A stretch of DNA of 64,000 nt from a virus: the IMG/VR virus record IMGVR_UViG_3300013099_000020, one strand, 5' to 3'. A model generated the notes under the pieces. That model was not told where the DNA came from. It saw only the letters and a list, made by a program, of their open reading frames with translations, and made no database searches. Positions 4,126-53,929 of this stretch are shown here, piece after piece (within the stretch, counting starts at the first letter, position 1; the number at the start of each line of letters is the position of its first letter). A program made the translations under genes and the position numbers.

Positions 4126-4135
4126 CCTATCAGCA
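4126..4135 (+). promoter_or_regulatory. conserved upstream motif CCTATCAGCA (instance 1)
   Basis: 22 nt upstream of the 4157 start; the same decamer recurs at least 12 times in this window. Confidence 0.5.
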
Positions 4136-4156
4136 TGGTGGAGGTGAGAGTGTTAG

Positions 4157-4834
4157 ATGAGTTCTACAACCCGCGCCTTTAGGGCGATCAAAAAGATTAC
4201 GAGGCGTAAGGAAGCAGAGAAGATCAAGCTAGACCCCAACCTGTTTCGCCACCCCAAGAAGAAGAACGTCGATGTCGCAGACACCTCACACGAGGCCTAC
4301 GACAAGCTGAAGGAAGATGGGGTCATCCAGACTCAGGCCGACCATTCACTTTGGTTCTTGAAGGAGTACTTGACCCAAGAGGATGCGGTTCCTCCGACAG
4401 CGAAGGAGCTGATGGACTGGGTGGAGAAGGGGGGCTTCCTCCCGGACGTTGATGACTCGCGCGCCTACGTAGCAAGACCCCTGTCAGTCCTGCGAAACAA
4501 GGGCCTGGTGCGGAACCCACCAGATCGCCTATGCACGATTGCTACGTGGCCAAGCGGTAAGCCAAAGAAGCTGATGACGTGGGCTCTCGTTGAGGGCGAA
4601 ATCAAGAAGCCCAAGAGGAAGCCGATGCCAAAGAAGGATCTCTTCCCCCGCATTGTGGCTTCGATGGTCAAGGGCTTCGTCCTACTGGTCTCCTTCGAGA
4701 TGGGTCAAGGGAAGACACTAAAGGAAGCTGTGGAACTTCACGATCCCTATCGACAGCTGGTGAAGTACGTGATCTACCGAAGCGTTGTACAGGGTCGAGG
4801 ATTGCCTCACCCACTGAAGGTGAAAGATGAGTGA
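4157..4834 (+). CDS. hypothetical protein, basic N-terminus, possible winged-helix
   Basis: ORF with GGAGGTGAGAG RBS; no diagnostic catalytic motif. Confidence 0.55.
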   Translation: MSSTTRAFRAIKKITRRKEAEKIKLDPNLFRHPKKKNVDVADTSHEAYDKLKEDGVIQTQADHSLWFLKEYLTQEDAVPPTAKELMDWVEKGGFLPDVDDSRAYVARPLSVLRNKGLVRNPPDRLCTIATWPSGKPKKLMTWALVEGEIKKPKRKPMPKKDLFPRIVASMVKGFVLLVSFEMGQGKTLKEAVELHDPYRQLVKYVIYRSVVQGRGLPHPLKVKDE

Positions 4835-5093
4835 CGAGAAGGAGCCTCTCCGAGACTATGGTTTCGGGGACAGCCCAAAGGTGGACGGACCTCCGAGGCT
4901 GATGGGGTATGCACCAGAACCATGCCCGCATTGCAGCTGCACCCCTGTGTTCAAGATCGAAGCGATCCTGGAAGAGGCACCACCCAACCTCAAGGTTCCC
5001 CCTGGCCATCAGGTCGTGGGGATGTATGTTGGGTGCGCAGCGTGTCCGTGGGCAAGCCCCATGATCACGCGAGCACAGCCAAAGGGAAACTGA
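4827..5093 (+). CDS. hypothetical small zinc-binding protein (CPHC...CAAC)
   Basis: ORF; two CxxC pairs. Confidence 0.45.
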   Translation: MSDEKEPLRDYGFGDSPKVDGPPRLMGYAPEPCPHCSCTPVFKIEAILEEAPPNLKVPPGHQVVGMYVGCAACPWASPMITRAQPKGN

Positions 5094-5094
5094 T

Positions 5095-5334
5095 ATGGGT
5101 CACGAAGGTCTACCGGATACTGATGACGAGAAAGCTGAGGTCCGAGCCAAAGGGCTTCGGATGCAGTCCTACCGAGAACAGGTAGTGACGCTCTCTCAGA
5201 AAGTTGCGGAGGGGCGATCGAAGGTGACTGGCGCCGAGGATGAGCTTCGGGAACAGAAGCAGCACTTGCAGGATGACGAAGACGCATTGGACATTCTCCT
5301 GACGGAAGGACGGAGGATGCTAGGGGAGGGGTAG
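5095..5334 (+). CDS. hypothetical coiled-coil protein
   Basis: ORF; charged heptad-like sequence. Confidence 0.45.
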   Translation: MGHEGLPDTDDEKAEVRAKGLRMQSYREQVVTLSQKVAEGRSKVTGAEDELREQKQHLQDDEDALDILLTEGRRMLGEG

Positions 5335-52200: not shown

Positions 52201-52842
52201 TCGGGGAGGACCACCCGAGATGCAGATGGGGGAGATCCCAGCGGAGTCACCCAGCCCAGAGACACTGATCCGACCAAGCCGATGGTGACCGAGTCTGAGG
52301 ACATCCCAGGTGAGGGGCACTCGACTCAGCCTGCGACTGGGGGTGACGCCCATGGTCCGCCTCGTCAGGATACCGAGCCGGTTGGGGAGACCATCGGGAT
52401 GGTCCAGGGTCGGGGTGAGATCAACCAGGCCATCGAGGAACTGGTCCGGGTGTACAGCCGAGTTCGCCAGGAGCGTTGGGACGTCAACGAGTTCATCCGC
52501 TCCTACACATGGCGGCCGATTGCGTCTGTCGTCGACCTCTTCGGGACAGCGAGCTTGGAGATTAGCGACGAGGGTGAGGTCGTTCAGGGCCATGAAGGGT
52601 TCCACAGCCGGGCCTTCGGAGATGTGGATGACCTGCGGCAGCTCGTCTCGAATGTTGATGGACGCCCTCGTAGGATTCTGGGGCTCACCTTGGAAGATCC
52701 TGACGACCCCAGCACCAGCGATGCCGATAGGGCTGAGAGAGACCAGGGAATCGCAGCCAGACTGGATACCCGGAGGGAGAAACGCCTGCCGGTCTTCCGT
52801 TACCTCCAGGCTCTGCTATCGTCCCGGGGCATTCTAGGGTAG
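49249..52842 (+). CDS. very large virion protein (1197 aa), putative tail/baseplate or internal structural protein
   Basis: ORF; no motif; position among structural genes. Confidence 0.5.
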   Translation: MAYAQRLHLRLFLEGVEVPVISANVQSGINQAAVASIQIPANDFALELKPRTLVHLFFYDFYRGAPPEGRNFVQGEGITVSQEQEVDPELESVLAELRINESTPDQLAIDLENENYKLMFGGEITGISVSKTPTTRGIVLQCMDWSSYWDFAFQYQVSGYSLGGGGIRAAFTGASTTIFNSFLDGDADIITQLMSTAPRGFPQLQGTLLGALVHIIEAIGGTYYGRNAVRGTNDFFSLAEMRLHLTQMVGANPFSNRDENRLLRAHGFGSLFRRKLAGLGKQVSIRAVLNALQPYIFHDIVPVTSPHFIPATTDPRLPQFEKVGIEEDEESAPIARTARFIKSRALELKSRQGNSTDSRSSQRQSRRRGGLAREIDRYRRMCITAMERARGVGVNRRVDRRFDRLFRLEGVHEKFAAAAEKFRGIKNATRTASGAGVRPHQLFLTGSRSAKAVVRLCDELEADMNKVLASKHRRRIARTTQQPDPPPRLITQAWRPDVWMVAPPRCNVIFPELYSQFSYSRNFMQETTRLLLRTSSVFFGSDILFDGFYMAPSRAVGQRDGERSPARGRLNKTPPDVVDAPAWFIRDLMEHELYTGILPKFERMSNLNLHALRGATGTVATEQGAVRVSYAALACNHIFFKQRFQSRQLQFSGKFNPFVVNGFPTVIIDKYQSRADVDNSEYDAALAARIAEAANEGRGEIGGLPAEQEDQVALASDGRVLELADQIAAQTPNTHYLGTPQALTHTVSIDGGGTTSMQMGYARTTNETTEFLGDARSTTGRSPQFDRLRDTSVASTVAWTSEPQVGDRGPRGGDITHVDDVTEEYRRRQGARPTRGRRGRTASGQDRLRHASRTQIPLWIPGGTISRRRYRGTRVLVGVSQAAAAYGPEVVAIVGSIGEQQAGFITRTDGTRTEIFIEFKAWRIRETIGIYRRRGTTSLPPEELVFPPWYGDHWKAHAVGGIYSHLFGTGSIVDETTFRAPTDSSGRTTRDADGGDPSGVTQPRDTDPTKPMVTESEDIPGEGHSTQPATGGDAHGPPRQDTEPVGETIGMVQGRGEINQAIEELVRVYSRVRQERWDVNEFIRSYTWRPIASVVDLFGTASLEISDEGEVVQGHEGFHSRAFGDVDDLRQLVSNVDGRPRRILGLTLEDPDDPSTSDADRAERDQGIAARLDTRREKRLPVFRYLQALLSSRGILG

Positions 52843-52877
52843 TTCCTTAGAAGTAAACGCTGAGGTACACTTCGGCC

Positions 52878-53918
52878 ATGGAGTTCCCCTTCTCCAAAGG
52901 AAAGCGGCCTCGAAAGAGCCGCTCTGGTGCTATGCCTCTAAATGTGGAGACGCTCACCAAGCAAGAGCGTCATGGGAAGGCCAAGATTTCTGGGCTCACC
53001 TTCGATGCATTCTCCTCAACTATGATGGGGAAGTGGTCCGCCTACCCCGATCCCTCGGCAGGGACGGTCTCCCCGACGACCGGCATCCAGCGCACTCCCA
53101 GCACTCTGGCGGACGACGACGACGCCGAAGAGGCGGTCAAGACCTTGAGCCACGGGAAGAACGTCCGGAAGCACCTGGGTATAGGGGCCGTGGGTGCCGC
53201 CGCGGGCCCCCTCATCGCTGCTGCTTCCCGAGGGGCCAAGGGCTTCCTCGATACCAAGGGCGGTGTCGGTGTACGGACAGGAGGGGCGCTGAAGGAGGTC
53301 AGCAAGGCTTCGCTAGGTGATGTCGGGTCTCAGGCCGTGGGTGGGGGCCTCGGAGGTGTGGTCTCCTCGATGGGTCTGGAAGAAATCAAAGTCAGGCAGG
53401 CCCAAGACAAGCTGCGCTCCTTCCTACAACGCTCGAAAGGGGGCGCCACGAAGGAAGCCGGAAGGATGTCCCCCGTCGCTCGGGCCACAGCCTTCCGAAG
53501 GCTGAAGCAGCTGGGAGACACGGGGGTCCACAGCTTCCAGCAGAACTCCAATGACATTCCTCAGATCGGAAGAGATCTCGAAAATATCATCGGGGGGCAA
53601 CTCAAGGAGCCCTTCGAGCAGCTGGTAGAGACCGCCCGCACACCCCAGTACCTCGGAGAAACCGCGAAGCGGATGAAGCAAAAGAGGGCGGCTGATGGCA
53701 TGACCGGCATGGGCGGCACCACAGGAGCCAGGGTGGGGGGCACCTCCGGAGTTGTCGGCGGGGCTCCCCCCTTCAACGCTGCGCAGATGGCTAACTCAGC
53801 CCGAGGAGCCGGAGACTTCACCCCGTCTGTCCCCAAGGCCAAGGCACACTCTGTTCGAGGTAGTTCAACCAACCCCCGACTCCGTTTGCTGGACGCCATG
53901 AATAAGGGGACGGCATAA
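52878..53918 (+). CDS. Gly-rich virion/internal protein (346 aa)
   Basis: ORF; GGxGG-rich low-complexity middle and C-terminus. Confidence 0.45.
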   Translation: MEFPFSKGKRPRKSRSGAMPLNVETLTKQERHGKAKISGLTFDAFSSTMMGKWSAYPDPSAGTVSPTTGIQRTPSTLADDDDAEEAVKTLSHGKNVRKHLGIGAVGAAAGPLIAAASRGAKGFLDTKGGVGVRTGGALKEVSKASLGDVGSQAVGGGLGGVVSSMGLEEIKVRQAQDKLRSFLQRSKGGATKEAGRMSPVARATAFRRLKQLGDTGVHSFQQNSNDIPQIGRDLENIIGGQLKEPFEQLVETARTPQYLGETAKRMKQKRAADGMTGMGGTTGARVGGTSGVVGGAPPFNAAQMANSARGAGDFTPSVPKAKAHSVRGSSTNPRLRLLDAMNKGTA

Positions 53919-53919
53919 C

Positions 53920-53929
53920 GCTATCAGCC
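53920..53929 (+). promoter_or_regulatory. conserved upstream motif variant GCTATCAGCC
   Basis: 13 nt upstream of the 53942 start. Confidence 0.4.

Follow-up and report, generated by a model that had tools for sequence, protein, structure and literature searches.

The virus record IMGVR_UViG_3300013099_000020, from an uncultured large phage, contains a 64,000-nt stretch of DNA (here called the window, with positions counted from its first base) in which transcription units on both strands are headed by a short conserved motif, built around the decamer CCTATYAGCA. We favor, with moderate confidence, the reading that this motif is a phage-specific promoter acting at the DNA level without a -35 element, and that it is read by an RNA polymerase holoenzyme carrying a phage specificity subunit, for which the sigma-70-family factor encoded in the window at 54288 to 55097 is the likeliest candidate. 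The window makes up 64 kb of a 75.4-kb metagenomic contig, and the analysis also covered a further 9.8 kb past the window end, as far as the last 1.2 kb of the contig.

A conserved motif and its shape

The decamer has seven exact matches in the window, where 0.11 are expected, and none of 100 dinucleotide-shuffled sequences reached seven; its core, CTATYAGC, occurs 12 times compared to 1.88 expected. A position weight matrix of 16 columns, scored over the window, picks out 11 strong sites with 18.9 to 26.4 bits, at 4126, 5982, 7175, 10613, 12490, 15591, 20029, 20345, and 53920 on the plus strand and at 42819 and 49222 on the minus strand. When the sites are left out one at a time, they still score 15.3 to 25.5 bits, against 12.5 to 13.6 bits for the best non-site. 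Both the count and this separation from background confirm the proposal of an initial annotation of the window that the decamer lies upstream of at least 12 genes on both strands, and the matrix scan that it had suggested, run on the window, places strong sites only ahead of genes. Two weaker sites in the window (1436 on the plus strand at 16.7 bits and 41822 on the minus strand at 11.7 bits) compare with about 13 bits for the best unrelated matches. Two further strong sites are found on the same contig just beyond the window end, each ahead of a minus-strand gene, and the motif heads at least 13 gene groups.

Alignment of the sites gives a conserved block of 16 to 20 bases, (a)tcG-CCTATYAGCA-NN-GTGA, with a GGAGG-type ribosome-binding site mostly directly 3' of it. 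The decamer is thus real as first described, but the conserved block runs on beyond it in the 3' direction as NN-GTGA. Within the motif lies a hexamer, TATYAG, in which T, A, and T are invariant at the first three positions and the last position is an invariant G, not T. At the sites named by the initial annotation the gap from decamer to start codon is 12 to 42 bases. A preceding CG, described there as the usual case, occurs at only 3 of the 11 sites, with G at -1 from the decamer in 7 of the 11. The remark that no -35-like partner is evident holds: with the exception of a single column at -4, upstream positions carry no more than 0.4 bit of information, and a search for a -35 element found that k-mers shared in the -35 zone of the sites are not above a random-sequence null.

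Placement of the sites

Non-coding sequence makes up 8.5% of the window by our own gene calls, and all 11 strong sites in it are intergenic, 22 to 52 nt before the next start codon. All 13 strong sites on the contig stand upstream of transcription units and are oriented toward them; every site, the weaker ones included, is either non-coding or at the end of a gene and points at the next one. Four sites (4126, 7175, 20029, and 20345) lie 10 to 25 nt after strong hairpins (-17 to -33 kcal/mol) with T-runs, in line with the earlier observation that the motif several times follows a terminator. Between terminator and ribosome-binding site the motif is the sole conserved element at these four sites, and the closeness of the terminators leaves no room for another promoter. 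Among the six minus-strand protein genes confidently called on the contig, five are preceded by a site, including sites within divergent gaps of 54 and 135 bp. The sixth (start 47335) has a TACTCT-type element instead.

The spacing from hexamer to GTGA is fixed even where the ribosome-binding site lies 20 to 30 nt further downstream. At such sites a hairpin begins 0 to 4 nt from the G of GTGA, the predicted +1, as would be expected of a protective stem-loop at the 5' terminus. Taken together, the sites next to terminators, the five of six minus-strand genes, the missing -35 element, and the orthologous sites kept in relatives (described below) bear out the proposed class of single-block promoters. 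The motif is very probably a promoter, and it belongs to a -35-independent subclass.

The first of the plus-strand sites, CCTATCAGCATGGTGG at 4126 to 4141 (22.8 bits), is 31 nt before the start at 4157 and has a terminator-like hairpin (-32.8 kcal/mol) and T-run directly upstream. CCTATCAGCAGTTTGA (5982 to 5997) stands 30 nt before the start at 6012, and ACTATCAGCCTTGTGA (7175 to 7190), preceded by a terminator-like hairpin of -23.4 kcal/mol and a T-run, is 24 nt before that at 7199. GCTATTAGCATAATGA (10613 to 10628), CCTATCAGCAGGGTAG (12490 to 12505), and GCTATCAGCAGATCGG (15591 to 15606) precede the starts at 10642, 12518, and 15619 by 29, 28, and 28 nt, respectively; the second of these heads a plus-strand unit diverging from minus-strand tRNA genes, and the operon headed by the third holds an exonuclease gene at 16792. 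Both CCTATTAGCATAGTGA (20029 to 20044) and CCTATTAGCAAAGTGA (20345 to 20360) follow terminators. The predicted 32-nt leader of the former consists of a hairpin and then the ribosome-binding site ahead of the start at 20075, and the latter is 26 nt before the start at 20371. GCTATCAGCCTTGTGA (53920 to 53935) lies 22 nt before a gene for a 108-amino-acid protein that precedes the sigma gene and starts at 53942. On the minus strand, CCTATCAGCACAGCGA (42804 to 42819) heads the unit 42792 to 41208, which includes a deoxynucleoside monophosphate (dNMP) kinase gene, within the 54-bp divergent gap, and CCTATTAGCAGAGTGA (49207 to 49222) heads the gene at 49170 to 48625 with a predicted leader that opens with a hairpin. 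The weak variant CTTATTAGCCAACTGA (41807 to 41822, minus strand, 11.7 bits), also written as CTTATTAGCC, stands before the start at 41780 and likewise has a predicted leader opening with a hairpin. Every start named in this paragraph had been listed, correctly, in the initial annotation.

Another variant, GCTATTAGCTGAATGA (1436 to 1451, plus strand), is at the end of the open reading frame at 1187 to 1447 and 48 nt before a vault-protein-like gene that starts at 1484. The motif had been described as lying always just 5' of the ribosome-binding site; this is so at most sites, but at 20029, 1436, and the minus-strand sites 49222 and 41822 a hairpin intervenes.

Two neighboring genes may be mentioned here. 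A GIY-YIG nuclease-like open reading frame (10309 to 10620, plus strand), a recorded Pfam match for the contig, has its end inside the site at 10613. The vault-like gene (1484 to 4063, plus strand) encodes an 859-amino-acid protein in which a shoulder domain of the major vault protein (E = 3e-22) is combined with a vault repeat, which is unusual in a phage.

Conservation in relatives and across the clade

The site at 53920, ahead of the small gene that is followed by sigma, has orthologs in six relatives, in which CTAT[C/A]AG is invariant and the neighboring non-coding bases vary; the sigma factors of these six are 39 to 73% identical to that of the window. In more distant relatives the layout is kept, and the sequence varies to CCTATAAGCA, CCTATGAGCA, or CCTATYAGT.

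A related motif extends to cultured phages. In the Salmonella phage Arash (53% G+C) it takes the form GGTATAAGTA-NN-GT(A/G), with 11 sites in about 140 kb against an expectation of well under one, mostly 20 to 55 nt ahead of minus-strand non-structural genes and in one case ahead of tRNA-Asn. The form in Vibrio phage D69 is G-N-TATAAGTAATAT. Among independent IMG/VR contigs of this clade, which range from 37 to 62% G+C, the pattern GGTATAAG-N4-[GA]T[GA] occurs 87 times in 49 of 74, compared to 1.9 times in shuffles. Hexamer, spacer length, and GTR are identical in plan between the window (TATYAG-CANN-GTG) and the clade (TATAAG-N4-GTR), and the window motif conforms to the clade pattern of a TATNAG hexamer, a 4-nt spacer, and GTR before non-structural genes. 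The same hexamer, spacer, and start architecture therefore spans a large clade of phages of 150 to 190 kb, including the cultured Arash and the Vibrio phages D69, D181, and D148. Since the signal is kept across phages of unrelated hosts and over this range of base composition, its reader must be carried by the phage, and we regard it as highly likely that the promoter is phage-specified.

The window and the Arash/D69 clade are alike in the TATNAG core, in the 4-nt spacer with GTR, in the placement before non-structural genes, and in a sigma of the Arash gp10 type that accompanies the motif at a syntenic position. They differ in the flank (CC in the window, GG in the clade), in the fourth base of the hexamer (C/T versus A), and in the next two bases (CA versus TA). 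The clade also has an RNA polymerase made of a beta-beta'N fusion and a beta'C part, which was not found for the window lineage. Literature searches on TATAAGTA and GGTATAAG found no paper describing the clade motif, and a "Moraphage" paper proved to concern a different, T4-like lineage.

The sigma factor and its operon

The gene at 54288 to 55097 (plus strand) encodes 269 amino acids with the arrangement sigma2-sigma3-sigma4 and is an ortholog of Arash gp10. That the window encodes a sigma-70-family factor at this position, as the initial annotation had said, is confirmed by profile, phmmer, and fold evidence. Pfam Sigma70_r3 matches the protein at 24.9 bits, just under the cut-off of 25.3, and NCBIfam FliA_WhiG matches it at E = 1e-6, below its curated cut-off. 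A phmmer search against PDB aligns residues 88 to 193 with regions 2 and 3 of RpoS and FliA (E = 1e-3 to 4e-3). The AlphaFold2 model has three helical blocks at a predicted local distance difference test (pLDDT) score of 69.6, and with it Foldseek returned 33 matches at E <= 1e-3, all of them members of the sigma-70 family and covering, with about 245 to 320 aligned columns, the whole 269-residue model; the template modeling (TM) scores are low (0.2 to 0.3) because the domains are flexibly linked. On these profiles and this model, the protein is a genuine though divergent full-length member of the sigma-70 family. A segment of region 2, DPxxGxKLxT(H/W), is conserved across the clade and is among the best-kept parts of the protein.

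The nearest cultured relatives of this sigma are Arash gp10 and the equivalent protein in Vibrio phages D69, D181, and D148. Identity to these relatives is 27 to 28% by tblastn and 20 to 25% across the sigma alignment, whereas the identity between the Arash and D69 sigmas is 43%. The gene is syntenic with that of Arash: upstream of it lie homologs of gp6 (at 47371 in the window) and gp8 (at 49306), followed by a small gene. A scan of viral contigs with the single protein found nothing, and a metagenome scan with the sigma alignment added only one contig, of 1.6 kb.

The small gene, at 53942 to 54268 (plus strand), encodes a conserved 108-amino-acid protein and is the first of the motif-headed sigma operon. 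A protein of about this length directly before sigma is also present at the related loci L001, L005, L006, L015, and L017, whereas the sigma loci of L004 and L007 are without it. Arash (gp9) and D69 likewise carry a small gene at that position. The protein could be a partner or a regulator of the sigma. In Arash, gp9-gp10 is preceded by GGGTATAAG, which at gp9 reads GGGTATAAGAAAT|ATG.

Proposed recognition of the motif

Read as a bacterial-type promoter, the motif would place TATYAG as a -10-like hexamer, with C at -13, T at -12, A at -11, T at -10, Y at -9, A at -8, and G at -7. The atcGCC just 5' of it, with conserved CG/CC at -16 to -14, would fall in the extended -10 zone, which is normally contacted by sigma region 3; such extended -10 geometry would explain why no -35 element is needed. 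CANN would form the discriminator, and with T at -1 we infer a start at the G or A of GTGA (+1), 7 to 8 nt after the hexamer. The placement of GTGA at positions 5 to 8 after the hexamer, along with the 5' hairpins, fits such a start. A 7-nt distance and a preference for a pyrimidine followed by a purine at the start are usual for bacterial-type polymerases. The resulting leaders would be very short, opening almost at the ribosome-binding site, or would otherwise open with a 5' hairpin. Since the sigma operon itself carries the motif, positive feedback would follow.

Only the gp10-type sigma was seen in the window as a specificity candidate shared across the clade, and its operon is headed by the motif both in the window and in Arash. 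The basis for pairing the two is a single one, namely, that the sigma and the motif core are co-conserved across the clade, and on this ground the sigma encoded at 54288 is somewhat more probable than not as the reader of the motif.

Several points weigh against this assignment. The start sites, in this phage and in all of its relatives, are predictions from sequence. The link of sigma to motif is one of co-occurrence, and as a further sigma (gp196) and a further promoter-like motif (CTAAAATA) exist in Arash, the pairing could be reversed. That the operon of the sigma is itself headed by the motif agrees equally well with a cascade and with autoregulation. In -10 elements of the sigma-70 family T is near-universal at -7, where the motif has G, and the contig covers 75 kb of a genome that is probably 160 to 190 kb. 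The question raised is whether the gp10-type or the second sigma reads TATNAG, whether it does so with the host core or with phage beta/beta', and how G at -7 is accommodated.

Other promoter-like elements in the window and in Arash

Elements of other forms occur alongside the motif. The sequence TTGACT-N16/17-TATnnn is found before both minus-strand tRNA clusters in the window. For the cluster at 832 to 1072 it is a canonical-looking sigma-70-type promoter, TTGACT-N16-TATGTT, at 1176 to 1149 on the minus strand; for that at 12171 to 12337, TTGACT-N17-TATCCA was recognized by eye upstream, in the gap at 12340 to 12490. The tRNA at 12254 to 12337 in the latter cluster was detected by Rfam and not by ARAGORN.

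A second class consists of a TA(G/C)ACT or TAGGCT hexamer, often after GG or TGG, that lies exactly 6 nt before the start of genes without a ribosome-binding site. The genes are those at 21990, 27636, 47371, 52878, and 62801 and possibly 61573 (GTG start), most of them large and of structural type, and the elements with their starts span 21976 to 21992, 27620 to 27638, 47357 to 47373, 52864 to 52880, 61557 to 61575, and 62785 to 62803. Relatives have such elements near 6730 and 8348 in L001, near 1448 in L004, and near 1390 in L007. The arrangement TAnnCT-N6-ATG implies leaderless mRNAs. As a bare word, GGTANNCT occurs 20 times where 15.2 are expected and is not enriched, so the class is defined by position only. 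The presence of sigma-A-like promoters in the same window indicates that the motif is not of the housekeeping type.

In Arash, CTAAAATA, which resembles the T4 late element TATAAATA, precedes structural and polymerase operons, namely, upstream of gp212, gp216, gp218, gp204, gp241, and gp2 (L013, which is Arash 135000 to 180819, L014, and L012). At gp212 and gp216 it stands back to back with a reversed motif of the GGTATAAG type (GGTATAAGAA at gp212 and GGTATAAGGA at gp216). The two Arash motifs and two sigma genes (gp10 and gp196) suggest two phage-specific promoter classes.

Alternative explanations

The alternative that survives best keeps the promoter phage-specific and assigns it to a different phage factor, either a further sigma comparable to Arash gp196 or a holoenzyme delivered by the virion; the sigma encoded at 54288, expressed from the motif, would then turn on a later class, such as the leaderless structural-gene promoters of TAnnCT form. 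This accounts for the motif at the head of the sigma operon and for the other promoter form at structural-type genes (47371, 52878, 27636, and 62801), and it has a parallel in the two sigmas and two motif classes of Arash, with structural and polymerase operons under CTAAAATA. It also matches the classical logic of phage transcription cascades, as in SPO1 and T4. The 75 kb seen, however, yielded neither a second sigma nor any other specificity factor. Across the clade the motif core and the gp10-type sigma are both conserved, whereas the structural-gene motif is not, being CTAAAATA in Arash and TAGACT/TACACT here; furthermore, the TAnnCT elements, often after TGG, look like ordinary extended -10 promoters of sigma-A. 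We consider this alternative possible but rather doubtful.

Reading by a host sigma, housekeeping or alternative, of a high-G+C host appears improbable. CTATNAG does resemble the -10 element of sigma-S type, CTATACT. Against such a reading, the same core and spacing recur in Salmonella and Vibrio phages and in the 49 clade contigs of widely differing G+C content, canonical TTGACT/TATnnn and TAnnCT promoters coexist with the motif in the window, and the motif has G at -7, where recognition of the sigma-70 type requires T.

A role in RNA, as a processing site, translational operator, or leader element, would fit the nearly fixed distance to the ribosome-binding site in nine sites, and read-through from upstream genes would put the motif into transcripts. 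This is very improbable given that four sites come directly after strong terminators and that others head divergent units within gaps of 54 to 135 bp. The motif is outside any conserved structure, the hairpins being downstream of it, and an Rfam scan of the window returned tRNAs only, with no match at any motif site. In addition, the motif precedes a tRNA gene in Arash, which argues against a translation-related role.

A promoter of a T7-like single-subunit RNA polymerase might be suspected from the contiguous form of 16 to 20 bp with the predicted start inside, which is typical of such promoters, and from the resemblance of Arash TATAAGTA to the yeast mitochondrial promoter ATATAAGTA known from the literature, but it is very unlikely, as no protein matches RNA_pol (PF00940) among the 86 of the window or in the contig extension (75 kb seen), no such gene is among the Arash annotated functions viewed (all but 74,300 to 115,000), and the clade carries sigma factors and beta/beta' genes instead.

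RNA polymerase core

The preferred reading, in which the sigma encoded at 54288 recognizes the motif, leaves two candidates for the core enzyme. In Arash, gp206 (L014 15094 to 19671) is a beta-beta'N fusion, with Pfam Rpb2_6 at E = 3e-56 and Rpb1 domains 1 and 2, and gp216 is the C-terminal part of beta'; D69 carries the same polymerase at 56% identity. Virion preparations of Arash are reported to contain gp206, gp216, and gp10, the one indirect sign that a sigma of this type binds an RNA polymerase core, although the same preparation included many metabolic enzymes and packaging is therefore not secure (PMC10585845). The polymerase family has hundreds of metagenomic homologs with 41 to 95% identity on viral contigs of up to 193 kb (P0011 to P0130 and L021 to L164), some of them beta-beta'N fusions of about 1500 to 1600 amino acids and others beta alone, of about 1115 to 1140. 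In the literature, only the Arash genome paper was found to mention this polymerase.

For the window lineage, no beta/beta' polymerase was found among the 86 window proteins or in the 9.8 kb of contig past the window end. A tblastn search with Arash gp206, gp216, and gp196 found no match in the window or at related loci, and two invariant-peptide scans found no polymerase on four related contigs of 160 to 190 kb. Scans with invariant peptides and with a high-G+C polymerase did recover about 75 clade contigs, none of them among the four related to the window, and the flanks of the high-G+C polymerase loci share no genes and no motif with the window. Two large proteins were considered as polymerases and rejected: one of 1263 amino acids is of low complexity, rich in Gly, Met, and Ala, and one of 1178 amino acids matches the Arash structural "cell wall hydrolase" gp8, neither with a polymerase motif. 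As the window sigma is only 20 to 25% identical to its Arash and D69 counterparts, a similarly divergent polymerase could have escaped the scans.

The tRNA genes have promoters of host type, which points to at least partial use of the host enzyme, and we lean slightly toward the host core as the partner of the window sigma. That this sigma works in its lineage with a phage-encoded polymerase is a minority possibility. A broader form of the same idea, which we hold equally tentatively, is that TATNAG-N4-GTG is an old promoter type, with the window motif as one of its branches, that serves a complete viral system of bacterial type. In that system the sigma and a phage beta-beta'N/beta'C enzyme would be produced late, travel in the virion, and transcribe early non-structural genes in the next infection. 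The enzyme of the window phage would then lie in the unsampled part of the genome or be too divergent for the scans, and the sigma encoded at 54288 would be a subunit of a viral holoenzyme rather than a hijacker of host core. A viral polymerase working with this sigma, if there is one, would be a multisubunit enzyme of a virus that uses a clearly recognizable sigma-70-family factor, unlike the enzymes of phiKZ and AR9.

Genes driven and genome setting

Most window proteins are without a Pfam or PHROG family. The families recognized include dNMP kinase, HD phosphohydrolase, 3'-5' exonuclease, RNase HII, patatin, a PAS histidine kinase with two receiver-domain proteins, and the protein with the major-vault-protein shoulder domain. 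The relatives of the window in IMG/VR are contigs of 160 to 190 kb. The genes headed by the motif are non-structural (the dNMP kinase unit, an HD hydrolase operon, the exonuclease operon, many small open reading frames, and the sigma operon), and the set is functionally of an early or middle class, not a late one. In a lineage whose proteins are mostly without known relatives, the motif sites are a ready map of transcription units.

The PAS-HisKA-HATPase histidine kinase (33333 to 34439, plus strand) is followed by the receiver-domain proteins at about 34440 to 34854 and at 34845 to 35636, which together form a two-component set in a viral genome. The 1263-amino-acid protein (42847 to 46638, plus strand) matches no family, and Gly, Met, and Ala are extremely abundant in its N-terminal part. 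It stands where Arash has the structural protein gp4; megablast and tblastn searches with its gene against cultured phages found no match. Other assemblies running past the left contig end were sought, and none was recovered.

Comparison with known systems

Bacterial extended -10 and sigma-S-type promoters are known in the forms TGnTATAAT and CTATACT, the latter with C at -13. The motif is like them in C at -13, T at -12, A at -11, and T at -10, in conserved bases just upstream, and in having no -35 element, as well as in a predicted start 7 to 8 nt downstream with a pyrimidine at -1 and a purine at +1. It differs in the G that replaces the near-invariant T at -7 and in having CGCC rather than TG upstream.

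An analogy with T4 late promoters (TATAAATA; gp55, gp33, and sliding clamp) had been drawn in the initial annotation. It stands for the form, a single element in the -10 region without a -35 partner, and the Arash version TATAAGTA is one base from TATAAATA. It fails in other respects: the window motif is CTATYAGC, the sigma is full-length (sigma2-sigma3-sigma4), whereas T4 gp55 is truncated to region 2 only, and the genes driven here are non-structural, not late.

The jumbo-phage multisubunit RNA polymerases of phiKZ and AR9 likewise pair short phage-specific promoters with virus-encoded machinery that is partly delivered by the virion. Those enzymes have diverged strongly and lack a canonical sigma, whereas the candidate here is a recognizable sigma-70-family protein and the polymerase was not found.

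The closest described system is that of the middle and late promoters of phiEco32, at which the phage sigma gp36 recognizes a single AATGTA element centered at -11.5 (PMC12276001). Both have a divergent phage sigma-70-family factor and promoters with a single short consensus in the -10 region (PMC12276001). The motif sequences are unrelated, and that of the window reaches beyond the hexamer in both directions, for a length of about 16 to 20 bp. A co-factor like phiEco32 gp79 was not recognized by name in the window, where no direct search for gp79 was made. Promoters without a -35 element that are read by a phage sigma are thus of a known kind, and what is new here is the sequence, the sigma clade, and the unusual G at -7.

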